55,169 nucleotides of DNA from Candidatus Saccharimonadota bacterium. Lineage in GTDB: Bacteria > Patescibacteriota > Saccharimonadia > CAILAD01 > BJGX01. The position numbers and the translations under genes were made by a program. Below, one piece after another: positions 8,723 to 47,911 of the stretch. The stretch lies in contig DAOLHK010000001.1 of the NCBI GenBank assembly GCA_035329105.1, positions 27,955 through 83,123 of the forward strand. The letters are read 5' to 3'. Every line of letters begins with the position of its first letter. Within the stretch, counting starts at the first letter, position 1. The notes under the pieces are model-generated. The model saw nothing but the letters and a program-made list of their open reading frames with translations, did not search any database and was not told the DNA's origin.

Positions 8723-8785
8723 AGCAAGCTCTTATACATCTGTTAATTATACCAGATTACATTATATACATGTAATCCGAATATT

Positions 8786-9139
8786 TTAGTCCCGAAATTT
8801 ATTCCACATCTCTTTGACGCGAAAACGACGTGGAGAATTCTTGTCTTTGTATTTTTTGATCTGTAGTCTAAGCTTTTGCTCTACTATATCTATTGCAGAG
8901 TGAGGATTGATAGTGGCGGTTTCAGCAACTATATCAGGACCGGGTACTTCAAGTACTGCAGTTACCTTGTATTTGTTGTCTTCTTTGCCGGATGGATCAC
9001 GAAATATCTCTACTGCCATACCGATAGCTTTGTGATCTTTTGGCATGTATTTGTCCAATCTACCAAGCTTTTTCTGGACATATTTACGCAAGCTGTCGTC
9101 TATCTCGTATTTTCTACTACTCAATTTTATATCTATCAT
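8786..9139 (-). CDS. hpf: Ribosome hibernation promoting factor / RaiA family (short form)
   Basis: 117 aa. Pattern LRKYVQKKLGRLDKY ... AIDIVEQKLRLQIKKYKDK is typical of HPF/RaiA. It sits directly upstream of secA, as in many Gram-positives. Confidence 0.85.
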   Translation of the reverse strand: MIDIKLSSRKYEIDDSLRKYVQKKLGRLDKYMPKDHKAIGMAVEIFRDPSGKEDNKYKVTAVLEVPGPDIVAETATINPHSAIDIVEQKLRLQIKKYKDKNSPRRFRVKEMWNKFRD

Positions 9140-9160
9140 ATTGCCTCCACTATGATTCTA

Positions 9161-10384
9161 TTATAACACTTCGGCGCCATAGTATTTTTGTAATACTTCC
9201 GGGATCTTCACAGTACCATCAACTTGCTGATAATTTTCAAGTATTGCTATTGTCATCCGACTACTAACTACGGTGGTACCATTGAGGGTGTGAACGTAGT
9301 CTAATTTACCATTCTCTGTGCGATACCTGATATTGAGATTACGTGCTTGAAAGTCCGTGCAATTACTACAGCTGGTCAACTCACGGTAGTCCTTCTCCGC
9401 GGGACTAAAGTATTCCAAATCATATTTTTCATATGCCGGAGTACTCATGTCTCCAGCCGCAATTCGTACCACACGATATGGTATATTCAATTCCTGGCAA
9501 ATTTTCTCTTCAATCTCGACTATCTTCTGAAGCCAATTATTACTTTGGTCTGGATGACAAAATACATACATCTCCAATTTTTCAAATTGATGGGTACGGT
9601 ACAACCCTTTGCTAAATTTACCGTATGCACCAGCCTCTAGACGATAGCTCGGACTTAAACCTGCGTATAGCTTGGGCTCCGCTAGGTCCAAAACATCATC
9701 CTTGTGATATCCGGTTATTGGTATCTCGGAGGTAGCTATCAGCACCAATTTCTGATCACTATCGATATAGTTTTGATTTTCTTCACCCCTAGGCATATAA
9801 CCAGTACCGGATGCTACATCGTAATTCACCATATGCGGTACACCCATCATTTCAAAACCTTCTTTTCTAACGATATTTTGTGCGAATAATTCGATTGCTT
9901 GCCACAGACGCAGCATTTTATCTTTTGTGAAATAAAATTTCGCTCCAGATACTTTTGCGCCAGCTTCAAAATCAAATAAATTATTAATCTCGCCAAGTTC
10001 TACATGATCTCTAGCTTCAAACTGCAATTCAGTCTTACCCCATCTACGCTCCTCTCTATTGTTATTTTCATCGCCATCCGGAGTATCGTTGGCTAACAGA
10101 TTGGGAACTTGACTTAAGATATCGTGGTATTTTGAAGTAATTTTATCTAAATTCTTACTGATAGATTCATATTCTTTTTTCTTAACTTTCAATGCTTCTA
10201 GCTCTTCTTCCGTTGGCTTGCCATCAATCTTGAGTTGAGATCTTAATGTCTCAGATTTTTGGATAAGTTCAGCCCTGTCTCTATCTAACTTTAGTAATTC
10301 TTCAATGTCTACTTCGACACCTCTTCGCACAGCACTCTCTTGATATGGCTGTGAGTTTTCACGTAATTTCTTGATATCTATCAT
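9161..10384 (-). CDS. serS: Seryl-tRNA synthetase
   Basis: 407 aa. N-terminal coiled-coil arm plus class II core (RTHQFEKLE, GTTVVSSRMTIAILENYQ). Confidence 0.95.
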   Translation of the reverse strand: MIDIKKLRENSQPYQESAVRRGVEVDIEELLKLDRDRAELIQKSETLRSQLKIDGKPTEEELEALKVKKKEYESISKNLDKITSKYHDILSQVPNLLANDTPDGDENNNREERRWGKTELQFEARDHVELGEINNLFDFEAGAKVSGAKFYFTKDKMLRLWQAIELFAQNIVRKEGFEMMGVPHMVNYDVASGTGYMPRGEENQNYIDSDQKLVLIATSEIPITGYHKDDVLDLAEPKLYAGLSPSYRLEAGAYGKFSKGLYRTHQFEKLEMYVFCHPDQSNNWLQKIVEIEEKICQELNIPYRVVRIAAGDMSTPAYEKYDLEYFSPAEKDYRELTSCSNCTDFQARNLNIRYRTENGKLDYVHTLNGTTVVSSRMTIAILENYQQVDGTVKIPEVLQKYYGAEVL

Positions 10385-21873: not shown

Positions 21874-22248
21874 ATGAGCAAAAAATATGGTTTTGGCGTT
21901 TTGAGCCTTGAGCTCACAATTACCGACGAAGAATATGGTATGTTCAGCGAAGGACGAAAGGCACGTATCTTCTGGTTCTGGTACATATTAACGTTGGCAA
22001 TTTTCATGTTCCCAGTTGCCATAGGAGCACTTATCGCCTCCTTTATTACCAATATCATACTTCCAGAAGGCGGCCACCCTTGGTTCATATTTCCCGCTGC
22101 ACTGCTAGCGATGCACATAATATTGGTCGTCTTCGGCAGGAAGGGCCTCGTCTACTGCGAGGAAGAAGTGGACGGAAATGTCCTGACTATCCAGGCTGGC
22201 ACATTTAAGTTTCGTGACATCTTCCGGAAGTCCAGCTCATCCAACTAG
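21874..22248 (+). CDS. Small two-TM membrane protein (124 aa), orphan, GC above local background
   Basis: ATG at 21874 preceded by AAAGGAAAACAAT, preferred over the tracked upstream start at 21790. Hydrophobic segments FWFWYILTLAIFMFPVAIGALIASFI and WFIFPAALLAMHIILVVF. Plus strand, against the backbone direction. Confidence 0.6.
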   Translation: MSKKYGFGVLSLELTITDEEYGMFSEGRKARIFWFWYILTLAIFMFPVAIGALIASFITNIILPEGGHPWFIFPAALLAMHIILVVFGRKGLVYCEEEVDGNVLTIQAGTFKFRDIFRKSSSSN

Positions 22249-22323: not shown

Positions 22324-24111
22324 TTAGCCGACCATATCAAGTTTCTTGAGCTTGGCCTTACCTACTGCTGTCTTGCTGATATTTTGCAGATCAAGTAGCT
22401 CTTTGTATATACCAGTCTTGCGTTTGGCGAGTTCTTGTGGAGAACCTATCTCCACGACTTGACCGTTTTTGATACCAACTATAGTATCTACACCTGAAAT
22501 AGTACTAAGTCGGTGAGCGATGATCATAGTAGTACGATTTGCCATCAGTCTTTCTAGTGCACCTTGTACCTCATGCTCGGCTTTGCTATCTAAACTGCTG
22601 GTAGCTTCGTCGAGGATCAGTATAGGAGGATTTTTCATGATGGCTCGAGCAATAGCTATACGTTGCTTTTGTCCTCCACTAAGCTTCACACCTCTCTCAC
22701 CTATCTCAGTATCAAATCCCTTGGGTAGTTTCTTGATAAAATCATAGGCATTGGCAGCTTTGGCAGCGGAAATTAGTTGTTTCTCGGTGGGCTTCTTGGA
22801 GCCATAGCCGATATTGTCTTTTACAGTACCGGAAAACAATTGTGGCTCCTGGAATACTACACCTATACTAGACCTCAAGCTTTCTTGAGTCACGCTATCT
22901 ACTGACTGACCATCTATCAGGATCTGACCTGCATTTAGCTCATAAAATCGCAACATTAGATTGGCAAGTGTGCTCTTACCTTCACCCGATTCTCCTACCA
23001 AAGCTAGCTTTTTACCTGGGTCTATCGTAAAGCTCACGTTTTTGAGTACATTTTTGCCTTTTTCATAAGCAAATCCAACATTTTGGTATTCTACCCTCGA
23101 ATTACGTATTTTGAGGGGTTTTGCACCTTCTTTGTCTACAATATCGGCTTTGGTGTCCATAATCTCAAAATAGTCTTTACTGCCTGCTGTTGCACGCTGT
23201 AAGGCATCTATGATGAAACTACTACCGAATAACGGGAATTGAGCCTGAACAGATAGAGTCAGCAGTAGAGTCATAGTACCTAGGTTGTAGACCCCAATAT
23301 ATGCCTGATAAATTATTACTCCCATAATAGCTGTAAATATAATGTTCAAAACAAGCCTGCGATAGACATCGTACTTGTGCCACTGCACTGATTGAACCTT
23401 GGTTTGGCTTTCTATCTTGATTCGTTTGTTGCCATAAAACATTCGTTCTGATGCTTCCATCACAAATGATTTGACTACTCTTACTTGCACAATTGATTCA
23501 ACAAAGCGACCATTGCCGATGTCGAGGTCTTTGTTGATTCCCTCCTGGTGCTTTTGCCAACTCTTACTGCTCAAGTGAGTTATCCAGATATATATTGGGA
23601 ATATCGCTGCTAGTAATAGTGCTACTGGCCAGCTGTAAAAAGCTATGACCACTAGAGTAATCACAGTAGTCAAGAAAAACTGCACAAACCCATTGGCTAG
23701 AGTCTGCATCAGTGTAGAAATAGTAGCGATTGAACGATCAAGACGAGCCGTAATCTTACCTGTTATCTCATTGTCATAATAGCTAATTGGTAACTTCATG
23801 AGATGTTCAAAATAGCGATTTGACATCAAGGTATTGAGCTTGACACTCATCATATCACCCCAATAACCGCTTAGATTTGACAGTAGGGTCAATACAATTG
23901 ATGCAATACCACCTAGTGCTACCAATCCAAATAAATACTGCAAACCAGGTGAATTGCCATTATTTGCCGCTACAATACCGTCTACTAACCCCTTGGTAAC
24001 AAATGGCGTTACTAGATTCAGGCCAGATGTAATAACAACAACTATCGCTATAGCTGTATAGTAAGGCCACAAAACCTTGGAATACTTTATAATCTTCCAG
24101 ATTGCTTTCAT
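22324..24111 (-). CDS. ABC exporter, fused permease/ATPase (ABCB/MsbA-like)
   Basis: 595 aa. Six-TM domain plus NBD with Walker A GESGEGKST, signature LSGGQKQRIAIARA and Walker B ILILDEATS. Confidence 0.92.
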   Translation of the reverse strand: MKAIWKIIKYSKVLWPYYTAIAIVVVITSGLNLVTPFVTKGLVDGIVAANNGNSPGLQYLFGLVALGGIASIVLTLLSNLSGYWGDMMSVKLNTLMSNRYFEHLMKLPISYYDNEITGKITARLDRSIATISTLMQTLANGFVQFFLTTVITLVVIAFYSWPVALLLAAIFPIYIWITHLSSKSWQKHQEGINKDLDIGNGRFVESIVQVRVVKSFVMEASERMFYGNKRIKIESQTKVQSVQWHKYDVYRRLVLNIIFTAIMGVIIYQAYIGVYNLGTMTLLLTLSVQAQFPLFGSSFIIDALQRATAGSKDYFEIMDTKADIVDKEGAKPLKIRNSRVEYQNVGFAYEKGKNVLKNVSFTIDPGKKLALVGESGEGKSTLANLMLRFYELNAGQILIDGQSVDSVTQESLRSSIGVVFQEPQLFSGTVKDNIGYGSKKPTEKQLISAAKAANAYDFIKKLPKGFDTEIGERGVKLSGGQKQRIAIARAIMKNPPILILDEATSSLDSKAEHEVQGALERLMANRTTMIIAHRLSTISGVDTIVGIKNGQVVEIGSPQELAKRKTGIYKELLDLQNISKTAVGKAKLKKLDMVG

Positions 24112-24155
24112 TTAATCTCAGTTTAGCATGTGTCGAAAATTAAAACGAGCCCACC

Positions 24156-24181
24156 GGCCAGACCCCCGCAGGGGTCTGGCC
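24156..24181 (-). terminator. GC-rich stem-loop (11-bp stem, 4-nt loop) at the edge of the GC-rich micro-island
   Basis: GGCCAGACCCC (24156-24166) pairs with GGGGTCTGGCC (24171-24181). On the minus strand a GTTTTAATTTT tract follows about 10 nt later. Confidence 0.55.
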
Positions 24182-24200
24182 AATGAGCCGTGTCGAGGCA

Positions 24201-24240
24201 TCGAACGTATGTGTGTCAGCCGTAGCTTACATACGTTCGA
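24201..24240 (-). other. Perfect 12-bp inverted repeat with 16-nt loop
   Basis: TCGAACGTATGT (24201-24212) pairs with ACATACGTTCGA (24229-24240). It lies between the 41-codon ORF and the GC-rich terminator-like hairpin. Confidence 0.5.
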
Positions 24241-24302
24241 GTACTGCTGTCGGGGCTTCAGCCGTGAGGCTTAGGCCGGTGTTGGTGTGTGACGGGTGAG
24301 CG

Positions 24303-24428
24303 TCAGGTGCAGAGCTGGTCGGTGGGCTCGCCGGCGGCCGTGATGGTCGAGCCCTTCTCGAACAGCCGGTTCGAGGTGTCGGGCGCGGTGGTCTCGGTGT
24401 GGTACCTCGTGAACCAGGTCTGGCGCAT
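24303..24428 (-). CDS. 41-aa ORF with actinobacterial-style codon usage (MRQTWFTRYHTETTAPDTSNRLFEKGSTITAAGEPTDQLCT)
   Basis: All 41 sense codons end in G or C (counted). AAGGGGGG SD 4 nt upstream of the ATG. Too short for the ORF track. The tracked 77-aa frame (24227..24460) is R/P-rich and looks off-frame. It could be a gene fragment. Confidence 0.5.
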   Translation of the reverse strand: MRQTWFTRYHTETTAPDTSNRLFEKGSTITAAGEPTDQLCT

Positions 24429-24488
24429 GGTGCCCCCCTTGGGGTGGTTGTGTTTGCCATACCTCAGCAGTTGCTGTAGGTTATATAC

Positions 24489-24516
24489 ATTATAATCCTA
24501 GTGTTTTGAGTGTCAA
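24489..24516 (-). promoter_or_regulatory. Near-consensus sigma70-type promoter reading into the GC-rich micro-island
   Basis: Minus strand reads TTGACA (24516-24511), a 16-nt spacer, then TATAAT (24494-24489). It lies in AT-rich DNA about 60 nt upstream of the 41-codon ORF. Confidence 0.5.
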
Positions 24517-24597
24517 AAGTTATTTATAGATTTTATTTCGACCATAAAAATAGCTCTTTTATAGCATTGGCTAGGCTACAAAAGAGCTGGTATTACC

Positions 24598-24864
24598 CTA
24601 TCTTTTGGTTTTTGACCGATAGAAGGCTGGCTGAAGCGGACCAGAAATACCATATGGTCGCCCAGCCTGCTCATAGCATTCGAAGTGATATTGCTCGACT
24701 CTATCCCACCTATCACCTTCGTATATATTGCATATTACCTTACGAGGCTTGTTTCTTGCCCTATATACAATTCGCTCACCACACTGTGTACATAGAGTAT
24801 AGCACCCTGTTTCTACAAATCGCACTACTGCTCGTGTACCAAGAACCGTCTCTGACGAATCCAT
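24598..24864 (-). CDS. Small Cys-containing (zinc-ribbon-like) hypothetical protein, 88 aa
   Basis: AGGAGG SD 6 nt upstream. GCYTLCTQCGERI plus further Cys at ICN and FECY. Basic C-terminus. Second gene of a bicistron with 24892..25185. Confidence 0.65.
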   Translation of the reverse strand: MDSSETVLGTRAVVRFVETGCYTLCTQCGERIVYRARNKPRKVICNIYEGDRWDRVEQYHFECYEQAGRPYGISGPLQPAFYRSKTKR

Positions 24865-24891
24865 TTCATACCTCCTGAACTCTTGATTGAC

Positions 24892-25185
24892 TTAGGTTGA
24901 GCTACGTGGCTTCATCAATAGAAAAACAGATACACACAGACTGAACAATAAATACACAAGTGCTTCCCTGTTGTTCTCTGCACTAATCATCGCGTATCCC
25001 ATAGTCAGATAAATCGCCCAAAGTACTCTAGGCATCATCTTGTCTATGACCCAGTCAGCTACCAACTGCTCTCTTGTCTCGGATCCAGTGGGCTCGGCAT
25101 ATCGAAGCTGACTCATAAGTCTCGGAGCCCACCAAGCCACATACAAGCTATAGAGTATCGTGATGACAATCTTGAAAAGTGGCAT
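24892..25185 (-). CDS. Small three-TM membrane protein, 97 aa
   Basis: AAGGAG SD 5 nt upstream. Hydrophobic segments at the N-terminus, middle (VLWAIYLTMGYAMI) and C-terminus (LVYLLFSLCVSVFLL). Confidence 0.65.
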   Translation of the reverse strand: MPLFKIVITILYSLYVAWWAPRLMSQLRYAEPTGSETREQLVADWVIDKMMPRVLWAIYLTMGYAMISAENNREALVYLLFSLCVSVFLLMKPRSST

Positions 25186-25380
25186 TTCAACTCCTTACGC
25201 TACTCGAAGCTGATAACTCCAAAAGGTGCGATAGTCATATAAAAATATCAGAGATAAGAGCAGCTGTCAAAGGTGGCGATACAGTATTTCGCTGAGTAAT
25301 TTGTTATGTTTTGGAGCTGTCAAGCATAACTATAAAACTCATCCCTATCTGTTGAGCGAATAATATGCACACAAAAACAC

Positions 25381-25409
25381 TTGACAAATACGCTTATGTT
25401 TGGTATACT
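25381..25409 (+). promoter_or_regulatory. Near-consensus sigma70-type promoter of the Rpf-like gene
   Basis: TTGACA (25381-25386), a 17-nt spacer, then TATACT (25404-25409). Confidence 0.6.
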
Positions 25410-25541
25410 AGCGGGCGTTCTGTGGATTGGTCGATTCCACTCCCCCGCAGAACAGTACATTACATAAGTAAAGAAAGGAGATACGACGCACTCTGAACCC
25501 GCGTAACTTCATCTATATGGTGAAGCACGTATCAGAATATT
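25410..25541 (+). promoter_or_regulatory. ~130-nt structured 5' leader with mutually exclusive pairings
   Basis: GCGGG (25411-25415) can pair with CCCGC at 25444-25448 or at 25498-25502. GTTCTG (25417-25422) pairs with CAGAAC (25448-25453), enclosing the TGGA/TCCA hairpin. There is no obvious SD in front of the ATG at 25542. Confidence 0.35.
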
Positions 25542-26123
25542 ATGCGCCTTCTCAGTCAAGCAGTTGTTGCATTTGCAATGATTGCCAACCAGGTGATAAG
25601 TACGGTACATATCCCTATCACCGATACAGCTAAGGCTGCCGAAGCCCAACCTGTAGTACCAAGTAACTACACATTGACAATCAACACTACACAACCCGAA
25701 GCTCTTGAGCTCAAAGCCAACAAAGGAAACTTCGATCAAGAAGTCGTTGCTCCTTTAAAAGCCGCTCAAGCGCTCAAGGCCGCTGCCGACGCTGCTGCAG
25801 CCCAGGAAGCTGCTAATCGAGCTGCTGCAATTGCTGCTACTCGAGTAAGCTCAGCCCCTGCTGCAAAACCTGTCGTAATAGGCGGTGATGATGCTTTCGC
25901 CAAGCTTCGATTCTGTGAAGCTGGTGGTGACTACACCAAGAATACCGGTAACGGATACTATGGTGCCTACCAGTACGACATGCGTACTTGGGCTAACTAT
26001 GGCGGTTATGCTCGACCTGACCTTGCACCTCCAGAGGTACAAGACGCCAAGGCTCGTGCTACCCAAGCCGCTCGTGGTTGGTCTCCATGGCCTGCATGTT
26101 CACGCAAGCTTGGTCTATTGTAA
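25542..26123 (+). CDS. Secreted Rpf-type (resuscitation-promoting-factor-like) transglycosylase-domain protein
   Basis: 193 aa. Hydrophobic N-terminus and an Ala-rich linker. C-terminal FCEAGGDYTKNTGNGYYGAYQYDMRTWANYGGYARPDLAPPEVQDAKARATQAARGWSPWPACS matches the Rpf domain pattern (CE[SA]GG catalytic Glu, NTGNGYYGxxQ, conserved Cys pair). Confidence 0.85.
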   Translation: MRLLSQAVVAFAMIANQVISTVHIPITDTAKAAEAQPVVPSNYTLTINTTQPEALELKANKGNFDQEVVAPLKAAQALKAAADAAAAQEAANRAAAIAATRVSSAPAAKPVVIGGDDAFAKLRFCEAGGDYTKNTGNGYYGAYQYDMRTWANYGGYARPDLAPPEVQDAKARATQAARGWSPWPACSRKLGLL

Positions 26124-26148
26124 GACTGTTCTAACAACTAAATAATAC

Positions 26149-26176
26149 AAAAGCCTCCTGTCAAAAGGAGGCTTTT
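26149..26176 (+). terminator. Rho-independent terminator after the Rpf-like gene
   Basis: AAAAGCCTCC (26149-26158) pairs with GGAGGCTTTT (26167-26176), followed by a T-rich run. Confidence 0.7.
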
Positions 26177-26177
26177 G

Positions 26178-26206
26178 TTGTACTAATTATTGTTTTGTTG
26201 TAGAAT
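26178..26206 (+). promoter_or_regulatory. Candidate promoter of the 26242..26662 bicistron
   Basis: TTGTAC (26178-26183), a 17-nt spacer, then TAGAAT (26201-26206). Confidence 0.45.
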
Positions 26207-26241
26207 TATCCAGCACCTATCGATACAACAAGGAGATTTCG

Positions 26242-26418
26242 TTGACCAATCAATCAACAACGCAGCCTGAGCGTTTTGTGTGTGCGTCTAATCTCAGGCC
26301 AACAATGGTCGTAGAAATAGAAATTACCCAAGGACTAATGGTCCAAAACGGTCGACTCATACCTTTTGTCGACTTGTTATACGGCCGGTGTCCTCTTCTA
26401 GAAGATTATGACAGGTGA
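26242..26418 (+). CDS. Candidate 58-aa ORF with TTG start, overlapping the next gene by 11 nt
   Basis: AAGGAG 6 nt upstream of TTG. Translation MTNQSTTQPERFVCASNLRPTMVVEIEITQGLMVQNGRLIPFVDLLYGRCPLLEDYDR. The downstream ATG (26408) has no SD of its own, which fits translational coupling. Below the ORF-track size cutoff. Confidence 0.35.
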   Translation: MTNQSTTQPERFVCASNLRPTMVVEIEITQGLMVQNGRLIPFVDLLYGRCPLLEDYDR

Positions 26419-26662
26419 GTGCACTGTACACATCATAGGTTACAACAGTAAACCTCAAGCCTATGCAACTATCGAGGTCCATTCGGTTGAAAGACTTTCT
26501 GATCCGGCGTCCAATCGAGCTGATCTAATATGTGTATACCACAGCCCAGAGAGGACTGATAGGCACTCTGTCTGGTTCTGGCCAGATGACGAGATCCTAG
26601 TAAAAGGAGCCTTCAATCCACATTCCTCCAAACGAAAGAAGAAAAGTCGTAAACTCCGATAA
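26408..26662 (+). CDS. Hypothetical protein, 84 aa, with basic C-terminal tail (SSKRKKKSRKLR)
   Basis: Tracked ORF. GC above background. No family recognised. Confidence 0.6.
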   Translation: MTGECTVHIIGYNSKPQAYATIEVHSVERLSDPASNRADLICVYHSPERTDRHSVWFWPDDEILVKGAFNPHSSKRKKKSRKLR

Positions 26663-26678
26663 TTACTCGGGATCCAAA

Positions 26679-26704
26679 ACACCCAAGCATCTATGCTTGG
26701 GTGT
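26679..26704 (+). terminator. Perfect 11-bp hairpin built on CACCCAAG/CTTGGGTG
   Basis: ACACCCAAGCA (26679-26689) pairs with TGCTTGGGTGT (26694-26704), 17 nt after the stop codon. No clear U-tract. Confidence 0.5.
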
Positions 26705-26734
26705 AAGTATATGAATTATCTAATAGTTAAAATC

Positions 26735-26765
26735 AAAAAATCCTCTTGAAAAAGAGGGTTTTTTG
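26735..26765. terminator. Bidirectional rho-independent terminator
   Basis: AAAAAA-TCCTCTT-GAAAA-AAGAGGG-TTTTTT. CCTCTT (26742-26747) pairs with AAGAGG (26752-26757), flanked by an A-run and a T-run. Confidence 0.65.
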
Positions 26766-26778
26766 TTGAATTATGTCT

Positions 26779-26880
26779 TTACTGACAAGCCTCACATTCG
26801 GCAAGTAGTTCTGGATCTATCGGACAAACCATTGGTTGATCCCAGTCTTTATCGGTTATTTTATTCTCTTTTGTTGCCAC
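26779..26880 (-). CDS. 33-aa Cys-containing small peptide gene missing from the ORF track (VATKENKITDKDWDQPMVCPIDPELLAECEACQ)
   Basis: GTG start with AAGGAGGG SD (GGAGG ends 4 nt upstream). Own promoter (26912-26941) and terminator (26735-26765). Missed by the ORF track because of its size. Confidence 0.5.
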   Translation of the reverse strand: MATKENKITDKDWDQPMVCPIDPELLAECEACQ

Positions 26881-26911
26881 TTTCCCTCCTTTTGTTTTTT
26901 ATCTGCTTATG

Positions 26912-26941
26912 ATTATACACCCATTCATTTTTATTTGTAAA
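26912..26941 (-). promoter_or_regulatory. Candidate promoter of the 33-codon peptide gene
   Basis: Minus strand reads TTTACA (26941-26936), an 18-nt spacer, then TATAAT (26917-26912). Confidence 0.5.
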
Positions 26942-27026
26942 TAGTGCTTATGAAAGATTTTATTACACCATATGTAGTGTATATAAAAGACTAGCATAAC
27001 CACATTAAAACCTATAAAATTAAAAC

Positions 27027-27725
27027 ATGCGCGACATCACCAAACCCCACTCCCTTGAAGAAATCATGCATGCCTGTAGTCTACAAAGCGACGACTCAAC
27101 AGATACTAAAGTATGCCTGATCAATGAAGAAATCACTCAGGGCCTCAATATCATCGAGAGATACCCCAAGAAAGTAAGCTTCTTTGGATCTACGAGGTTT
27201 ACCGAAGCCAATCCCTACTACCAACAAGCTCGTAGCCTAGCCTCTCGATTGGTCAAGGACCTAGACTATACTGTAGTGACTGGTGGAGGGCCAGGCATCA
27301 TGGAGGCTGCCAATCGCGGTGCCAAAGAAGCAGGTGGTCACTCTATCGGACTCAATATACAATTACCCAAAGAACAAGTAGCCAACCAATATCAGACAGT
27401 CTCTATACCTTTTCATTATTTCTTTACCCGCAAAGTCACACTGACCTTTGCATCTCGCTTATATATCTACTTTCCTGGTGGGTTTGGCACACTCGATGAA
27501 TTTTATGAAATACTTACTCTAGTCCAAAACAAGAAAATCCACAAAGTTCCAATAATACTAGTAGGTGCTAAATTTTGGGAGAGACTCGATATCGACTTTC
27601 ACCACAAAGAGATGCTTTCTGAAGAATTTCAGACAATTGAGCCTGAAGACACTAGCTTATACACCATCACTGACGATATTGATACTATTTTGCATATCGC
27701 CCATGATGCTCAAATGCGCATATAA
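27027..27725 (+). CDS. LOG-family (TIGR00730-type) nucleotide 5'-monophosphate nucleosidase/phosphoribohydrolase
   Basis: 232 aa. VTGGGPGIMEAANRGA and FPGGFGTLDE motifs. Confidence 0.88.
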   Translation: MRDITKPHSLEEIMHACSLQSDDSTDTKVCLINEEITQGLNIIERYPKKVSFFGSTRFTEANPYYQQARSLASRLVKDLDYTVVTGGGPGIMEAANRGAKEAGGHSIGLNIQLPKEQVANQYQTVSIPFHYFFTRKVTLTFASRLYIYFPGGFGTLDEFYEILTLVQNKKIHKVPIILVGAKFWERLDIDFHHKEMLSEEFQTIEPEDTSLYTITDDIDTILHIAHDAQMRI

Positions 27726-27738
27726 ACATATAAAATAA

Positions 27739-27764
27739 GCCCAAGTCTTGAATTTGACTTGGGC
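27739..27764. terminator. Hairpin between converging genes, stem GCCCAAGTC/GACTTGGGC
   Basis: 27739-27747 pairs with 27756-27764, with an 8-nt loop. It lies between the LOG stop (27725) and the minus-strand stop (27780). Confidence 0.6.
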
Positions 27765-27779
27765 CTGGTATGACAACTA

Positions 27780-28076
27780 TCATCGTGTCTCTCTCACGAG
27801 CTTAGCGAAAGCATCTTCGAATTTGCCGTTTTTACGTAGGTCATTCACAAATCGTCTGAGATCAGCTTGTGTCAACACAACGCCCTGCTCGACGCCGCTA
27901 GCCATGAGCAAATCTATTGTTCTTCTCTCTGCAGACTTAATGATTGTGACACGGCACTCAGGACATTTGTAGCTGTAAACACCTGATCCGTCTGACTCGA
28001 CGCTTCGCACCATTAGATCTTTGGTAGTGAGCTCCACATCTCCACAATCAGGGCAACTAGTACGTACTGTAGCCAT
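27780..28076 (-). CDS. Zinc-ribbon small protein, 98 aa
   Basis: AAGGAG SD 6 nt upstream. Two knuckles, CPDCG ... CPEC, about 30 residues apart. Helical C-terminal half. GC above background. Confidence 0.7.
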   Translation of the reverse strand: MATVRTSCPDCGDVELTTKDLMVRSVESDGSGVYSYKCPECRVTIIKSAERRTIDLLMASGVEQGVVLTQADLRRFVNDLRKNGKFEDAFAKLVRETR

Positions 28077-28100
28077 GGTACTCTCCTTTGTTTGCTGGAA

Positions 28101-28397
28101 TTATTGTTCAAGAGGGAAGGGTTTTTGTACTCGTAGTACAATGTCTTCGAAAAGATCTGGGTTTATCTTATATCGACTATAGATACGATTGGGATGTCGC
28201 TTGCGATGTAAAAATCCCAAGCGAAAGAGTCTCTCGCACGACTTGCTTACTTTGTAGATATCGCTTGTCATAGCAACATGACTCTTACCCTCAAATGATG
28301 GGTCTGAAGTAATTTCTACAGGCGAATTGGATTTGAGACGGTCACGAATCATGTACTCCAATACTTGATCGTCTAGCTTTCGTAGTCTACGCCTCAT
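28101..28397 (-). CDS. Small basic protein, possible winged-helix DNA-binding protein, 98 aa
   Basis: GGGAGA SD. The segment IYKVSKSCERLFRLGFLHRKRHPNRIYSRY resembles a recognition helix plus wing. First gene of a bicistron with 27780..28076 (24-nt gap). Confidence 0.55.
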   Translation of the reverse strand: MRRRLRKLDDQVLEYMIRDRLKSNSPVEITSDPSFEGKSHVAMTSDIYKVSKSCERLFRLGFLHRKRHPNRIYSRYKINPDLFEDIVLRVQKPFPLEQ

Positions 28398-28427
28398 GAT
28401 TTCTGTCTCCCGCTTGTTTTGGTTAGG

Positions 28428-28466
28428 TACTATCTATAGTATACAATCTTTTGTGATTATTGTAAA
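28428..28466 (-). promoter_or_regulatory. Candidate promoter with overlapping 6-2-6 inverted repeat (possible operator)
   Basis: Minus strand reads TTTACA (28466-28461), a 17-nt spacer, then TATACT (28443-28438). The inverted repeat TACTAT-CT-ATAGTA (28428-28441) overlaps the -10 and start region. Confidence 0.4.
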
Positions 28467-28562
28467 TCGTTTTTGAATTCTTTTGTTTAATTATGACGTT
28501 GTGCTTATGTATTTGTTATAATTAATATTTGCAATATCAACTAATCAAGAAATAGAGAGTAT

Positions 28563-28952
28563 ATGGAAGATAAAACTACACTACAAGCAATACACAGAAT
28601 CATGCCGGAACTGCGTGAATCAAAAGAAAAACTCAAGAATTTACGTGAACAGCTCAAAGACGTCATGGAACAAAACGACGAATACAAACAGATAGCCGAA
28701 GAAATAAAAGCACTCAGTGAAAAACGATTGGCAGCAAAGCGAGCACTACTAGACGACAAAGACTACCAAAAAGTAAGTGAAGACATGGATGATGAACGAA
28801 CAAAACAAAAAGACTTGCAAGAAATATTGAGTCATTATCTAGTGAGCTACTACCAAGAAACCAATGATACCAAAGTAACTGATGACCTCGGAGAGACACG
28901 CCAAGTGATCTTACAGGCCAAAGTCGGCAAACCAGAAGCTGATATCAAATAA
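28563..28952 (+). CDS. Coiled-coil hypothetical protein, 129 aa
   Basis: Tracked ORF. Charged heptad-like sequence. TGTTATAAT (28514-28522) is an extended -10 candidate upstream. Confidence 0.6.
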   Translation: MEDKTTLQAIHRIMPELRESKEKLKNLREQLKDVMEQNDEYKQIAEEIKALSEKRLAAKRALLDDKDYQKVSEDMDDERTKQKDLQEILSHYLVSYYQETNDTKVTDDLGETRQVILQAKVGKPEADIK

Positions 28953-28955
28953 TAT

Positions 28956-31900
28956 CTACTTAGATAACGGAGGCTGAGAATCGGCAGAGTTTGTATTGTC
29001 TGTATTCGATACAGTACTGCTTGGATTGACCTGTGAAACTGGCTGGGATGGACTAATGTCTAGAGTTGTATTGCTTGGATTTGGTGGCCTAGTTGATGTC
29101 AAGGTATTTGGATGTTGCAAATCAGAATTGGTGATTGGAGGTGCTGGTTGTTGAGCCGCCTCCTGAGCCGATGGAGCTGAGCTGGACATTGAGACTACAG
29201 GGTTCGTAGATATATTGGCTCCAATTGCCGGACCTTGAGATACGGATGAATCGCTAATAGGTGTTATCTGTGAAGGTTGAGGCGGTGGATTCTCAGTAGT
29301 ATTCGGAGTATAAACAGTTGAATTAGTTACAGGGGGCTGTGTAGAAGCGTTTGTATTGATTGGTTGATCAGGTAACGGCGGAAGTGATTTGGCCTTCTTA
29401 CGATGTCTTACGGTCATTATGATTACTATTACTAGCCCTACAATCAAGAGAATTATAAATAATAATACCAATACGGAAATCATTGGAGATATTTCTGGTA
29501 CATCGAGACCAGCAGCAATTTTAGCTTCTGCGACAGAGCTAAGCTGAGCTGCTAGATAATTGGCTGGATACTCAGTCTTGGCCTTGGTAAAGAGCTGATT
29601 GGCGGATTTGTAGTGAGCATTGGAGAATTTCTCAATTCCTTGATCCCAAGTACTGTCTACGGTACTACTGGTATTGAGAGTAATATTGTTCTTCTCAAGA
29701 AGTGACTTGACATCACTGACATCACGCAAAATACTCGAAGTTGCGAAGCTTTCTTTGCCAGACTTAGCACTAGCACCTGGATCAACATAAGTCACAAGCC
29801 CTATAATACTGCCATCTTCGGCAAAAGCAGGTCCTCCGGAATTACCCTGAGCTGCAGGCACATTTGTATCTATAAGACGATATTTGTTCTCGGCGATGCT
29901 CTCAACACCCAAGATTTTTCCCTGTGTAGCAGATGGGATAGTAGTATCTTTCTTGGTAGTCAAGCCGCCATCAACGAATCCCGGAAAACCCATTGCAGTA
30001 ACCAGTATGGTACTGCCACTATTGGGGTTGGAATTGTTTTGTTCATTCAGGCCACCTAGTGTAGAGATAGGATAATTACTTCCACTATCAAGCTTGAGGA
30101 TAGCTACATCTGATGTCTTGAGATCTTTGATATTAGCAATAAGAGATTGTCTGAGGGTTTGCTCATCAAAGTCTTTATCTATGAGCTGAGCAGATACCTT
30201 AGTATCACTGGTAGGTATTGTTATTACTGTCTTGTTGACTTCAGCTTTTATAGGATCGTTGCTTAGCTGAATGACGAATTTGCGATCAACCGAACTAGTC
30301 TTGTACTTGTCTGGACTTATTTTGGACGTAGTAGATAAGAATTTCTCAATTGCCTGTTTATTGCCGGCAGCAATCTGTCGCGCCAAAGCTTCTAGCTGAG
30401 GCCTGGTAAGCACCCCTGTATCTACCAAATATTGCAGATATGATCTGAGGTTGGCTGTATCTGTATTGAGACTAAGAAATGTTTGAAGAACAAGCTCTGG
30501 AATATCTGATACTACATGACCATTGGTAGATATATAGCCATCGCTTGATATGATAGAGCCGCTACCCACCACTGCATTGCAAGCATTTTTGGCCGAATAT
30601 CCGACTTGACCATTTGGCAATAATAAATCGATATTCATACAGGTATTGGTACCTACCCTAACAACCGTTGGTTGATTTTTGGCTACAACTTGCAATGCCG
30701 TATCGTTGACCAATGTCGTTGGAACATTGGTTGTAGATTGAGACAATATTTCCGGATTTGTTTGAGTCCCTCCCTTATCTTCGGCAGCATATGCAACATT
30801 GGAAAGTCGTGGATTAGCATTGCTGCTCAACTCTGCAACACTTCCATATTTAACTGAAGATATTACATTGCGCAGCAATTGTACCTGAGAAGGAATGGAC
30901 TGACTTGATTCACTCAGACTCATCGAGAAAGGCTGATTATTCACCACTAGAACATATTGGGTAAGCTTGCTAGTAGTGGTCACATACTCAGTGTTTACAA
31001 TTTTATACTCCACCGCTTGATATTTGACACCCGATATCTCTACCTCGGTTTGGTTGGTTTTCTCTACGAAATTATTGGCATCATTCTTGGGTGCGAAATG
31101 TCTGATTGCCAATTCTACTTGACTAAGGTTGCCATATTGAGTTTTTGCTGAGTCGAAAAAACCCTTATCAGCAGTAGTCTCAAACTTCAGATCAGTGTTC
31201 TGTACACTACTAGTACTAGTTATTGATGCACTATCGGCTTCACTAGGAGAAATCTTGACAATGGTATAGTCCGACACCTTAGTTAGCTCTTGCGAACTAA
31301 TAGGCTGACTATCTGGTGTTGTTTGTGCCGTAGTATCCAATAGATTGAAGTTGTATATCAGACTAAACCCGGCTGATGATATGATCTTTTTGTAACCTTG
31401 AGCTTCAAGCGCTGAGGATTCTAGATTTGCAGTATTTTGCACTATCTCATCACTTGCCCGAGAAATCCTCAAGACCAATATACCTATCAGGGCTACTACC
31501 AATACTCCACCTAATAATAGCCAGATATTTTCCCAAGGAGCACGATACTTGCTAATAGTATGAATCTTATTTGGCTTCGGCTCATTGTGATGAGATTTTT
31601 CGAAGTGGTGTTTGTGATATTTTCTTTGCTTACGATCTTTGTATAAATACACTATCAGGAATACTGTACCTGCTATAACAATGATAATAATTGCCAAAAA
31701 TTCCAATTGATTGGCTCTAAACACCTGCAAGAATCTTTCATACCCCGTAACATAACTCACTACATTGGCATTTCCCACCTCTACTTGTTGTTGAAGGGCG
31801 TTTTTGGCATCTATCTTGGCGCTTTCTGTCTGTACAAACAAGTAAGTCAGTATAGCTAATGAACCAAACAAAAGTGTAGACAGCAGTATAAGTAAAAAAT

Positions 31901-31973
31901 TGAGCTTTCTAGCCTTTTTTTTGTGTTTGGCATGGATATCTATACCGTTAGAATTGGGTTTACTTTTTTTCAT
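28956..31973 (-). CDS. Giant polytopic membrane protein (1005 aa) with extracytoplasmic trypsin-like (S1) serine protease domain and P/S/T/N-rich C-terminal tail
   Basis: Triad contexts ISTNGHVVSD (His), DVAILKLD (Asp) and GNSGGPAF (Ser). Hydrophobic segments near residues 26-46, 92-112, 150-170 and 828-850. His/Lys-rich loop KYHKHHFEKSHHNEPKPNK. About 150-aa low-complexity tail. Confidence 0.85.
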   Translation of the reverse strand: MKKSKPNSNGIDIHAKHKKKARKLNFLLILLSTLLFGSLAILTYLFVQTESAKIDAKNALQQQVEVGNANVVSYVTGYERFLQVFRANQLEFLAIIIIVIAGTVFLIVYLYKDRKQRKYHKHHFEKSHHNEPKPNKIHTISKYRAPWENIWLLLGGVLVVALIGILVLRISRASDEIVQNTANLESSALEAQGYKKIISSAGFSLIYNFNLLDTTAQTTPDSQPISSQELTKVSDYTIVKISPSEADSASITSTSSVQNTDLKFETTADKGFFDSAKTQYGNLSQVELAIRHFAPKNDANNFVEKTNQTEVEISGVKYQAVEYKIVNTEYVTTTSKLTQYVLVVNNQPFSMSLSESSQSIPSQVQLLRNVISSVKYGSVAELSSNANPRLSNVAYAAEDKGGTQTNPEILSQSTTNVPTTLVNDTALQVVAKNQPTVVRVGTNTCMNIDLLLPNGQVGYSAKNACNAVVGSGSIISSDGYISTNGHVVSDIPELVLQTFLSLNTDTANLRSYLQYLVDTGVLTRPQLEALARQIAAGNKQAIEKFLSTTSKISPDKYKTSSVDRKFVIQLSNDPIKAEVNKTVITIPTSDTKVSAQLIDKDFDEQTLRQSLIANIKDLKTSDVAILKLDSGSNYPISTLGGLNEQNNSNPNSGSTILVTAMGFPGFVDGGLTTKKDTTIPSATQGKILGVESIAENKYRLIDTNVPAAQGNSGGPAFAEDGSIIGLVTYVDPGASAKSGKESFATSSILRDVSDVKSLLEKNNITLNTSSTVDSTWDQGIEKFSNAHYKSANQLFTKAKTEYPANYLAAQLSSVAEAKIAAGLDVPEISPMISVLVLLFIILLIVGLVIVIIMTVRHRKKAKSLPPLPDQPINTNASTQPPVTNSTVYTPNTTENPPPQPSQITPISDSSVSQGPAIGANISTNPVVSMSSSAPSAQEAAQQPAPPITNSDLQHPNTLTSTRPPNPSNTTLDISPSQPVSQVNPSSTVSNTDNTNSADSQPPLSK

Positions 31974-32169
31974 ATGGTAGATTAAAGAAATTCATTTCTG
32001 TGATATAGAATTATTTAATATTATTCATTATTATACTTAAGCTTGATGAATATAACAATTCATCTAATTCGTGCATGAAACTATCTACATCAACTATGAA
32101 TACTAAGTGCTAAGGTAATCTTATTTTATACTTGTATTTAACCGAGCTTAATGCTATTATATTGATTAC

Positions 32170-32523
32170 ATGAAAACCAAGATTCACCCTGACTATATAG
32201 ATACCAAGGTTACCTGTAGCGGATGCGGGGCTACTTTTGATTCAAAATCGACTGTTGCAGAAATGAATGTAGATGTTTGTAGTAGCTGTCATCCATTCTA
32301 TACAGGCAAACAAAAATTAGTAGATACCGCTGGACGCGTCGATCGATTCAAGGCCAAGCGAGCTGCAGCTGAATCCAAAAAAGACGCACTTACTAAAAAA
32401 GCCGTAAAAGCGCTTAGCAAAAAAGAAGCTGCTGCTATGCTCAAAGCTGAAACAGAAATTAGCGAAAAAAACACCACTGAGATCAAAAAAGATCAAAAGT
32501 CTAAAGACCAAACAGAAAAATAA
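32170..32523 (+). CDS. rpmE: 50S ribosomal protein L31 (Zn-binding type A) with long K/A/E-rich C-terminal extension
   Basis: 117 aa. CSGCG and [11 protein letters not shown] motifs. The extension starts around [12 protein letters not shown]. Confidence 0.93.
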
Positions 32524-47501: not shown

Positions 47502-47572
47502 AGTTTCAATTCCTGCATGGATGTGCAGGTGGCTCACGAGATAGTGAGTATCAGAGCAAGGAGATGAGACGG

Positions 47573-47911
47573 ATGTCTTATCATCACGCAGTTGAAATCA
47601 CCAACGGACCGTCGCTACATGACATGAATGGCTCGGTCATGTACGGGCCCAAGATGAGGCCAGTATCTCTCCGCCTTCACTACACCCACACGGGTGAAGG
47701 CGAGGAGCTAAAGGGCTGGGTCGAGGCAATGGTGCTTACCAGGCCTGTTGCCGATCGTTGTCGGTGGTTCATCCGCTTCAGGATCGCTCAAGAACGTGGT
47801 GACTTAGGGCCGCGCTACCGGCACTTCTACTACGACTCGTACAACCGCGAGGGGTTCGAGCTGCCAGACGATCACCCGATGTGCCTGCTCGAGCAGTTCC
47901 TCTACTGCTGA
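47573..47911 (+). CDS. Orphan hypothetical protein (112 aa) in ~57-60% GC DNA
   Basis: AAGGAG lies 9 nt upstream of the ATG at 47573, whereas the tracked ATG at 47564 abuts the SD. One 60-nt line (47641-47700) counts 36 G+C. No family recognised. Confidence 0.6.
   Translation: MSYHHAVEITNGPSLHDMNGSVMYGPKMRPVSLRLHYTHTGEGEELKGWVEAMVLTRPVADRCRWFIRFRIAQERGDLGPRYRHFYYDSYNREGFELPDDHPMCLLEQFLYC

Follow-up and report, generated by a model that had tools for sequence, protein, structure and literature searches.

Pangenome analyses have described integration or plasticity hotspots, in which fixed core genes surround intervals of lineage-varying cargo. Regulatory arrangements are also on record for genes of the kinds considered here. 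A ydaO-type c-di-AMP riboswitch precedes actinobacterial rpf and cell-wall hydrolase genes, phage T4 gene 38 has a hairpin-bridged ("split") ribosome-binding site, and bmrB-bmrCD of Bacillus subtilis governs an ABC multidrug exporter by ribosome-mediated leader-peptide attenuation. Here we analyzed positions 24112–28952 of a 55,169-nt window (contig DAOLHK010000001.1, assembly GCA_035329105.1) from an uncultured activated-sludge Saccharibacterium (Patescibacteria). This block of small genes lies, as an earlier note on the same DNA had placed it, between an ABC exporter gene and the gene of a 1005-aa trypsin-domain protein. We conclude that the stretch is probably ordinary chromosome, in which conserved scaffold units alternate with slots of lineage-specific small genes, and not one mobile island. 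It resembles the known hotspots in its core flanks, its short variable intervals, its mostly small genes of no assigned function and the occasional defence-type genes of its relatives. It differs from them in that the slots are tiny (0.6–1.2 kb), interleaved with single core genes and bounded by terminators and promoters; moreover, there is no integrase, tRNA or repeat here, and the cargo is native in composition and fixed in the species.

For comparison, we used the ABC exporter as a query, which retrieved 36 loci in species-representative genomes (related loci carry L numbers below); all of the loci above about 48% identity were Saccharibacteria or Patescibacteria metagenome-assembled genomes. 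Scaffold and slots were told apart by a tblastn map and clustering of open reading frames (ORFs) over these 36 loci. Two further reference points were the sister species (L051; 87% amino acid identity in the ABC protein) and a divergent strain of the window's own species (L047). The assembly collection records the exact LOG protein in 91 blocks; RNA runs containing the stretch are labelled as sludge or wastewater. All of the ORFs listed earlier (33–232 codons, on both strands) are present at the places given for them (Table 1).

Four genes of the block, rpf, c33, LOG and cc129, keep their order and orientation in L002–L005, L007, L009–L011, L015, L026 and L055, at 40–86% identity. The most telling relatives are the compact ones. 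L055 and L026 have the order rpf-c33-LOG-cc129-rpmE, with a LOG-cc129 gap of about 60–180 nt in which the slot genes would not fit. Since cc129 directly adjoins rpmE in L009, L015, L026 and L055, the gene of the 1005-aa protease must also be an insertion; it was taken for a backbone gene in the earlier note, and we found it only in the window's own species and in L051 (65% identity). The protein has transmembrane segments and a Pro/Thr/Ser-rich tail. By contrast with the shared genes, gc41, mem97, o58/o84 and hth98 were not found by tblastn and ORF clustering in family-level relatives, in which cys88 gave one weak match (L004, 41% identical). The zn98 homologs were confined to the nearest clade, and a full-length homolog of mem97 was present in L054 (40% identical).

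In the relatives, the same gaps hold different cargo: proteins like OMP decarboxylase and phosphoribosyltransferase (pyrE/pyrF-like), a histidine phosphatase, a DinG-like helicase, a DndB-like DGQHR protein, a GHKL ATPase and, at one locus, TypA. Such differences in content mark the locus as a hotspot of gene turnover. In the arrangement that we propose, the scaffold would consist of rpf with its structured leader, c33, LOG, cc129 and the downstream rpmE-prfA-prmC, inherited vertically with their order kept family-wide. The slots, bounded by promoters and hairpin terminators, would lie between the ABC exporter and rpf (gc41 and mem97-cys88), between rpf and c33 (the frameshift-split o58/o84), between LOG and cc129 (hth98-zn98) and between cc129 and rpmE (the 1005-aa protease). 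Their genes would encode small regulators and membrane or envelope proteins.

The species carries the block as a fixed feature: of nine contigs, each from a different sample, all have it and eight are 99.6–100% identical over 22324–32523. In L051, every ORF is present in the same order, including the GC-rich gc41. Presence or absence of the block as one unit was not seen among close relatives; at the family level, the variation goes slot by slot. Of the earlier description of the block as an accessory island, this much stands: roughly half of its genes are lineage-specific. The block is not one island, in that four genes are syntenic core genes (50–96% identity), the block is fixed in the species and its composition is native.

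The composition was judged gene by gene, in a window and genome of about 41% GC. The backbone has a GC content at third codon positions (GC3) of 0.378 ± 0.066, and the block ORFs other than gc41 (n = 10) range from 0.29 to 0.51. The GC content of rpf is 51% but its GC3 is 0.38, the excess stemming from codon positions 1 and 2 in an Ala-rich linker. The codon-adaptation index of gc41, calculated against backbone codon usage, lies 6.7 standard deviations below the backbone mean. An elevated GC content, previously ascribed to several of the genes, is thus true of the gc41 segment alone, the GC3 and codon-adaptation check found deviant composition for gc41 only, and the block is native in composition except for this segment. 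Between the window and L051, ordinary genes are saturated at synonymous sites (proportion of synonymous differences, pS, 0.66–0.83). Ratios of nonsynonymous to synonymous substitution rates (dN/dS) in this comparison were 0.24 for cys88, 0.19 for mem97, 0.17 for zn98, 0.08 for o84 and 0.06 for c33; for hth98, o58, LOG and cc129, the proportion of nonsynonymous differences (pN) was far under the saturated pS. The small genes are therefore under purifying selection.

They are also transcribed, apparently as separate units. Terminator-like hairpins are enriched in the block (9, against 3.3 ± 2.0 in shuffled sequences) and promoter-like sites mildly so (16, against 10.6 ± 3.2), with near-perfect promoters ahead of gc41 and rpf. 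Contigs from metatranscriptomes of several sludge studies cover gc41, cys88, mem97, rpf, o58/o84, LOG, zn98, hth98 and cc129, and their ends fall near the predicted boundaries of transcription units. RNA contigs are lacking on the ABC gene and on the part of the protease gene that was sampled, its 3′ end, which makes uniform DNA contamination unlikely. These results bear out two proposals of the earlier note, that promoter and terminator signals are frequent and that the small genes are transcribed separately. Its statement that most genes have a strong Shine–Dalgarno (SD) sequence stands for cys88, mem97, o58, c33, zn98 and hth98, each preceded by an AGGAGG-type SD, and for gc41, the SD of which is AAGGGGGG; it does not stand for rpf, o84 and LOG, which have no strong SD directly upstream of the start codon.

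Evidence for the turnover of slot contents came from the interval between rpf and c33. In L047, the DNA from just after the rpf terminator to the c33 stop codon (26181–26778) is replaced by unalignable DNA (L047 9174–9752), with flanks that are 98.5–99.8% identical to the window. The L047 cassette encodes an intact protein of 134 aa, which is about 31% identical to o58 in its N-terminal part (pairwise E = 7e-6) and has a matching mid-motif and basic tail. In the window, the ATG of o84 sits 8 nt before the stop codon of o58. The L051 ortholog is intact (133 aa, 70% identical), and the window has 13 nt against 12 nt in L051 at about 26395–26408, a frameshift near 26400 that places the second half in the +1 frame. 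On this comparison, o58 and o84, described earlier as an overlapping pair of 58 and 84 aa, are one gene split by a +1-nt frameshift. An RNA contig spans 26255–26479 in this gene. Since both halves still look constrained, the frameshift may be recent, or the gene may function in split form.

The neighbouring rpf unit provides a second case. From promoter to terminator (about 25340–26185), it is 91–98% identical to L051 (10000–10760), with a pS of 0.147, whereas its flanks are 60–85% identical to L051 and saturated (pS about 0.7). A unit so similar amid saturated flanks indicates a recent inter-species exchange. We found no relaxase, integrase or transposase in Pfam, NCBIfam and PHROG scans of all the ORFs and the flanking genes, in agreement with the earlier reading on the latter two; no att-like flanking direct repeats beyond chance 13–24-mers; and neither tRNA or tmRNA genes nor Rfam families at gathering level in the 55-kb window. 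We suggest that homologous recombination between conserved flanks would replace the contents of the slots, in the present organism probably after natural transformation, a route that would explain the missing integrase. Saccharibacteria are naturally competent and integrate linear DNA with homology arms of 0.5–1 kb in a comEC-dependent manner (PMC10633639).

The scaffold-and-slot reading stands on synteny, species fixation, native composition, purifying selection, transcription, one cassette replacement and one inter-species exchange, all of them observed. Several points weigh against it. The evidence for recombination consists of one strain-level swap and one exchanged unit, and the route is deduced rather than observed. 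Rapid divergence of tiny proteins could look like replacement in some slots, and the gap between the ABC gene and rpf is about 1.4 kb in the window and in L002 alike. The RNA contigs carry no strand information, and some DNA could be included among them. Finally, the slot genes have no assigned function, which leaves room for a role in conflict.

Two other accounts of the whole block have to be weighed. According to the first, which we consider unlikely, the block is plain core genome, in which all genes are vertical and the absences reflect divergence too fast for BLAST to follow. The complete synteny with L051 fits this account, as does the rapid change of slot genes even there (57–59% identity for hth98 and zn98, 55% for mem97), and the remote mem97 homolog of L054, the cys88-like match of L004 and the residual 31% identity of the L047 allele to o58 also speak for it. 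However, L055, L026, L009 and L015 have little or no space for slot genes (the LOG-cc129 gap, for example, being 178 nt), and the slot cargo of the relatives comes from unrelated Pfam families. The L047 cassette also argues for allele replacement, since its product is 31% identical to o58 compared with 70% for the sister-species ortholog, although the L047 flanks are more than 98% identical. The earlier note had set ordinary core genome, conserved with similar composition in all relatives, against its island; half of that description holds, in that close relatives are syntenic and native in composition and about half of the block is conserved in all relatives, the remainder being slot cargo.

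According to the second account, the block is a prophage or actinophage remnant, or a defence or toxin–antitoxin island, that arrived horizontally in one piece or was built up from mobile conflict-system genes; its many tiny bicistrons, zinc ribbons, putative winged helix-turn-helix (wHTH) protein and lysin-like enzyme speak for it, but we regard it as very improbable, since the "lysin" and LOG are syntenic core genes family-wide, L051 has the complete block, the genes have native codon usage and are under purifying selection, and housekeeping genes lie on either side, without a tRNA, an integrase or bordering repeats. On the left, on the minus strand, lie rseP-uppS-frr-tsf-rpsB and the ABC exporter; on the right, rpmE-prfA-prmC, an HtrA protease and an LCP-family (LytR-CpsA-Psr) protein, followed farther on by a signal peptidase, parAB, thioredoxin reductase, TypA and a P-type ATPase. 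The searches agreed with this judgement. The defence-system scan with PADLOC-DB 2.0 gave only weak, partial matches (LOG to the PsyrA/ThsA SLOG region and the cc129 coiled coil at E about 1e-3), left the other small proteins without a match and assigned no window gene to a system. The PHROG matches of Rpf and LOG are generic transglycosylase and SLOG domains; two weak ones, zn98 (E = 5e-4) and hth98 (E = 4e-3), lend the account some support, and no phage hallmark was found. Scans of viral contigs with zn98, hth98 and cys88, which detect close relatives only, were empty. Pfam, NCBIfam and PADLOC, none of which is specific to such systems, gave no match to a toxin or antitoxin family; mem97-cys88 and hth98-zn98 are adjacent small bicistrons. 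Thus, there is no positive evidence for a phage or defence origin of the window's own genes, and the suggested actinophage or conflict-system gene pool yielded nothing meaningful in these scans. What does point toward defence is found in relatives, whose locus carries the DndB-like DGQHR protein, the GHKL ATPase and the DinG-like helicase. In the c33-LOG gap, L002 (3328–5840) has the DndB-like protein together with a 445-aa partner, and L003/L005 (1680–4159) have the GHKL ATPase (HATPase_c_3, with weak similarity to TmtA) together with a 270-aa partner; by sequence, these genes are possible defence cargo at the same hotspot.

Returning to the scaffold, the rpf product begins with a signal peptide, continues with an Ala-rich linker and then has an Rpf domain, which scores 66.7 bits in Pfam (PF06737; cutoff 27). 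Its C-terminal 70–95 residues align with chain 3eo5_A of RpfB (E = 1e-17), including the CEAGG motif, which holds the catalytic Glu, and WPxC. The protein thus shares with Mycobacterium tuberculosis RpfB (PDB 3eo5, 1xsf) the catalytic domain with CEAGG and the flanking Cys pair, as well as the N-terminal signal peptide. Unlike RpfB, it has no DUF348 or G5 domains and is preceded by a conserved leader RNA of its own, and it falls far below the NCBIfam RpfC/Rpf equivalog cutoffs (57 against 200 bits). As the Rpf of an epibiont of Actinobacteria, it may act on the host wall as well as on the cell's own.

The leader, of about 125 nt, contains helix P1 (GUUCUGUGG/CCGCAGAAC), an invariant GAAAGGAGAUACGACGC stretch, helix P2 (GAUACG/CGUAUC) and a variable hairpin, P3, which is fully supported by compensatory changes. 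Searched with a covariance model, each genome yielded a single copy, invariably placed right ahead of an rpf homolog. A metagenome pattern scan added nine copies, for a total of 19 distinct sequences. Over these, 91.6% of cells are paired, compared with 28–44% when the partners are slid, in an alignment that was fitted to the model and with new sequences that were retrieved by a pattern of the conserved stretch. Nine pairs have changes on both sides, and the covariation score is 0.267, against 0.160 in shuffled alignments, none of which (0 of 500) reached the observed score. By generic criteria, namely fixed position and compensatory pairs, the leader qualifies as a conserved structured cis-regulatory RNA; it has no match in Rfam 15 even at E ≤ 5. 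It is like the ydaO riboswitch in being a conserved structured 5′ leader before an Rpf-type gene, and differs in its smaller size (about 125 nt, three helices), its architecture and its lack of an Rfam match.

The position of P2 suggests how the leader might act. P2 stands between the only SD-like element, a GGAG directly on its 5′ side, and the AUG, which follows 8 nt away on its 3′ side; assembly of the ribosome-binding site may therefore depend on folding. As in the split site of T4 gene 38, folding of P2 would bring GGAG and AUG to normal spacing; unlike that case, the conserved P1 and the invariant single-stranded stretch suggest more than spacing. In one metatranscriptome, a leader-proximal contig (25473–25686) had a depth of 64, with no contig over the gene downstream of 25686. 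We found no paper in the literature on Rpf, the rpf leader or slots of this type in Saccharibacteria.

The gc41 unit has a different character. A promoter that matches the consensus at 12 of 12 positions lies in AT-rich DNA and is followed by about 310 bp of 66% GC and then by the ABC gene. The GC-rich segment comprises an SD, a 41-codon ORF, a 3′ untranslated region of about 115 nt and a terminator of −41 kcal/mol with a U tract. It is transcribed in RNA runs X7, X14 and X2, the contigs ending at 24457–24467. In L051, the −35 box of the promoter is conserved and the orthologous segment has 58–70% GC, with a GC-rich non-coding 3′ part in both species. The ORF keeps its start, stop and frame with two in-frame indels, again at a GC3 of about 1.0, and the terminator stem has compensatory changes (AGA/TCT to GAG/CTC). 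Of the 22 codons with identical amino acids, 21 share the third base, the other being a synonymous third-position change; the five differences at third positions are all exchanges of C and G, and pN (0.257) is higher than pS (0.160). Since neutral sites elsewhere are saturated, the GC content of gc41 is maintained and not decaying.

Several origins for the segment were rejected. It is not an assembly chimera, as an independent 590-nt contig spans both junctions and the segment is equally spaced in all of the species-level contigs. Nor is it a known non-coding RNA, with no tRNA or tmRNA, no Rfam match at gathering level and only chance-level hairpins at E ≤ 10. Recent DNA from Actinobacteria, phages or plasmids was rejected in view of the absence of a phage or plasmid BLAST match and of a protein homolog, and of the presence of the segment in the sister species. 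The gc41 protein has no homolog among 5.8 billion protein clusters, a metagenome scan with the gc41 pattern gave no match, and no similarity was found to the other GC-rich island. The short contig of L001, the closest species-representative genome (87% amino acid identity in the ABC protein), breaks off exactly at the expected start of the GC-rich segment (L001 1–37); high-GC patches may fragment assemblies of such genomes.

We think that gc41 may well be an independent micro-gene, at about even chances. The strongest competitor, a tentative one that we consider rather unlikely, is a leader-peptide attenuator, in which translation of the ORF chooses between the terminator and an alternative pairing and thereby gates read-through into the ABC exporter. 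A perfect promoter, the ORF and the terminator follow one another in this order, the terminator ending 37 nt before the ABC start. The 3′ arm of the terminator (24146–24161) is complementary at 15 of 16 positions to the 3′ end of the gc41 ORF (24315–24330), a match that none of 5000 Markov shuffles reached; the duplex energy is −29.8 kcal/mol. Conserved blocks of the ORF are kept at the nucleotide level, consistent with pN above pS, and RNA contigs lie on the leader in three runs and never on the ABC gene. The unit resembles bmrB-bmrCD in that a type-I ABC exporter gene is directly preceded by a short ORF and an intrinsic terminator, to which part of the ORF is complementary. However, the pairing engages the 3′ arm of the terminator and not the usual 5′ arm, and in L051 it is weaker (−18.6 kcal/mol); this geometry is atypical and weakly conserved by comparison with bmrB-bmrCD, and only two sequences of the gc41 unit are known. 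The ABC gene probably has its own promoter, another difference from bmrB-bmrCD: a −10-like box (TGnTAAACT), which L001 and L051 conserve, separates the terminator from the ABC start. In relatives, an unrelated small membrane-peptide gene with its terminator occupies this slot, and a −10 box follows at the corresponding position. Attenuation does not account for the GC3 of 0.98, for which bmrB-bmrCD offers no parallel. That the segment is an element acting as RNA only seems improbable, and that it is a decaying remnant highly improbable.

The genome has at least three high-GC patches, comprising the gc41 segment, a 463-aa gene at the left edge of the window and the ORF at 47564–47911. Positions 1–1059 of the window (minus strand) hold the N-terminal 353 codons of the 463-aa acidic protein (64% GC, GC3 0.83), which continues to the left. 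This gene is part of a high-GC patch of about 3.5 kb (L040/L041 10001–13500) at the same spot in related Saccharibacteria. Its orthologs (73–78% amino acid identity) have a GC3 of 0.82–0.83 in three species and a pS of 0.28–0.39, against 0.76 in neighbouring genes. The protein has no Pfam domain, and its homologs form 8 clusters only. An actinobacterial or phage origin of the 353-codon ORF was rejected, as there are eight homologs, the three examined in context sharing the syntenic Saccharibacteria spot. The third patch, on the plus strand between TypA and a DUF2779 gene, encodes 115 aa at a GC content of 0.57 and a GC3 of 0.71, has no Pfam domain and has five unnamed metagenomic relatives only. 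In two of the three patches, orthologs keep their GC3 despite saturated neutral sites, with third positions that change almost solely between C and G. It is conceivable, if doubtful, that the patches are not fading foreign DNA, and that selection holds them at 57–68% GC (GC3 0.7–0.98) in a genome of 41% GC as genes that are directed at the host, or that function at the level of RNA, in an epibiont living on high-GC Actinobacteria. On this speculative proposal, they might serve as messages that function inside the host or imitate it, or else as regulatory RNAs rich in GC, one of which could attenuate the ABC gene. If it were true, the locus would hold, together with the rpf leader, two new classes of regulatory RNA and a new compositional constraint.

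The remaining small genes are mostly of their own kind. The cys88 protein is 75% identical to its L051 ortholog and matched no family in Pfam, NCBIfam, PHROG or PADLOC scans; its partner mem97 is truncated to 46 aa in L051. The C-terminal end of c33, WDKPMVCPIDPxxLxECExCQ followed by the stop, is conserved in every relative found (at least 12 related loci), with no match to known families (Pfam, NCBIfam) or, by sequence, to PDB structures. An exact look-up of c33 found it not on record, because gene callers rarely call such an ORF. In the divergent intergenic region between c33 and LOG (26881–27026), the bin 26901–27000 is 93% identical to the sister species, against about 70–80% around it, and the region probably holds shared promoter or operator sequences.

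The LOG protein passes the cutoffs of PF03641 (90.7 bits; cutoff 27) and TIGR00730 (117.7 bits; cutoff 96.35) and is syntenic in relatives. It shares with this family of nucleotide N-glycosidases, related to cytokinin riboside 5′-monophosphate phosphoribohydrolase, the motifs PGGxGTxxE (here FPGGFGTLDE) and GGGxGxM (here GGGPGIM), and differs in an N-terminal extension of about 45 residues and in scores well below the equivalog models (32 against 300 bits for CtkRMPhLog and 22.7 against 450 for PpnN). Of the pair once labelled wHTH-like plus zinc ribbon, the four-Cys ribbon is seen in zn98 and the wHTH of hth98 is unproven. The zn98 family comprises 8 clusters only; its AF2 model (mean confidence, pLDDT, 83.7) shows a zinc ribbon and helices with weak likeness to the RPA12 and NrdR ribbons, and a fold search returned generic zinc-ribbon resemblance only (E ≥ 0.04). 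The hth98 protein, encoded in the unit most deeply covered by RNA contigs, is 57% identical to its L051 ortholog. Its sole family match is the weak PHROG regulator (E = 0.004) on which the wHTH assignment rests, and its structure model is unusable (pLDDT 42). The cc129 protein is 96% identical in L051 and 72–77% in family relatives, always beside LOG or rpmE; it falls below all family thresholds (Pfam, NCBIfam), and a PDB sequence search gave no meaningful match.

Table 1 Genes and predicted signals in and next to positions 24112–28952 of the window
Feature	Position	Strand	Description
gc41	24303-24428	-	41-codon Thr-rich ORF, GC3 0.98, SD AAGGGGGG
cys88	24598-24864	-	88 aa, five Cys; second gene of the mem97-cys88 bicistron
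mem97	24892-25185	-	97 aa, three hydrophobic helices
rpf	25542-26123	+	secreted Rpf-type transglycosylase
o58	26242-26418	+	first half of frameshift-split gene
o84	26408-26662	+	second half of frameshift-split gene
c33	26779-26880	-	33-aa acidic three-Cys micro-protein
LOG	27027-27725	+	LOG / TIGR00730-family enzyme
zn98	27780-28076	-	N-terminal four-Cys zinc ribbon, then helical tail
hth98	28101-28397	-	basic 98-aa protein; first gene of the hth98-zn98 bicistron
cc129	28563-28952	+	conserved coiled-coil protein
Trypsin-domain protein, 1005 aa, membrane-anchored	28956-31973	-	beyond 24112-28952; cargo of the proposed next slot
gc41-unit sigma-70 promoter TTGACA-16-TATAAT	24489-24516	-	12/12 match, in AT-rich native sequence
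High-GC segment (gc41 ORF and 3′ untranslated region)	24143-24450	-	about 66% GC
gc41-unit intrinsic terminator	about 24146-24189	-	strong; 37 nt upstream of the ABC start codon
Hairpin terminator after cys88	24545-24595	-	inverted repeat, then T run
Promoter-like site, mem97-cys88	25242-25270	-	10/12 match, TG extension
rpf promoter TTGACA-17-TGGTATACT	25381-25409	+	11/12 match; conserved family-wide
rpf structured 5′ leader	25416-25541	+	helices P1, P2, P3 and invariant GAAAGGAGAUACGACGC
Hairpin terminator, perfect 13-bp	26147-26178	.	right edge of rpf unit, left edge of swappable cassette
Replaceable cassette (o58, o84)	26181-26778	+	extra hairpins 26679-26704, 26742-26757
c33 promoter	26941-26912	-	promoter scan
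Hairpin terminator between convergent LOG and zn98	27737-27766	.	terminator scan
hth98-zn98 promoter	28466-28438	-	promoter scan

Two observations concern the surroundings of the ABC gene. In L007, L009, L010, L011, L015 and L026, a second ABC half-transporter (556–562 aa) lies directly upstream of the ABC gene (at about 7700–10000), which suggests a heterodimeric exporter in these distant relatives. The window's clade has a single ABC half here, and small unrelated genes occupy the position of the other half. Between rpsB and the ABC gene, a 124-aa hydrophobic ORF (21874–22248, plus strand; GC3 0.57, low codon adaptation) was found in no relative and is a further lineage-specific slot gene beyond 24112–28952.

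As an island of the kind first described, the block is of modest interest: it is ordinary chromosome with lineage-specific small genes. As an example of gene-content change, it illustrates how a reduced, naturally competent genome of the candidate phyla radiation may alter its gene content without mobile-element machinery, by swapping terminator-bounded cassettes via conserved flanks. A secreted Rpf-type enzyme that is kept in a parasite of Rpf-using Actinobacteria, has recently been exchanged and carries an undescribed leader offers a handle on the control of wall-active enzymes. The small high-GC genes, which resist the genome's mutational drift in GC, pose a compositional puzzle, one open to experiment now that Saccharibacteria are transformable. 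Most worth following at this locus are the rpf leader and the GC-maintained micro-genes.

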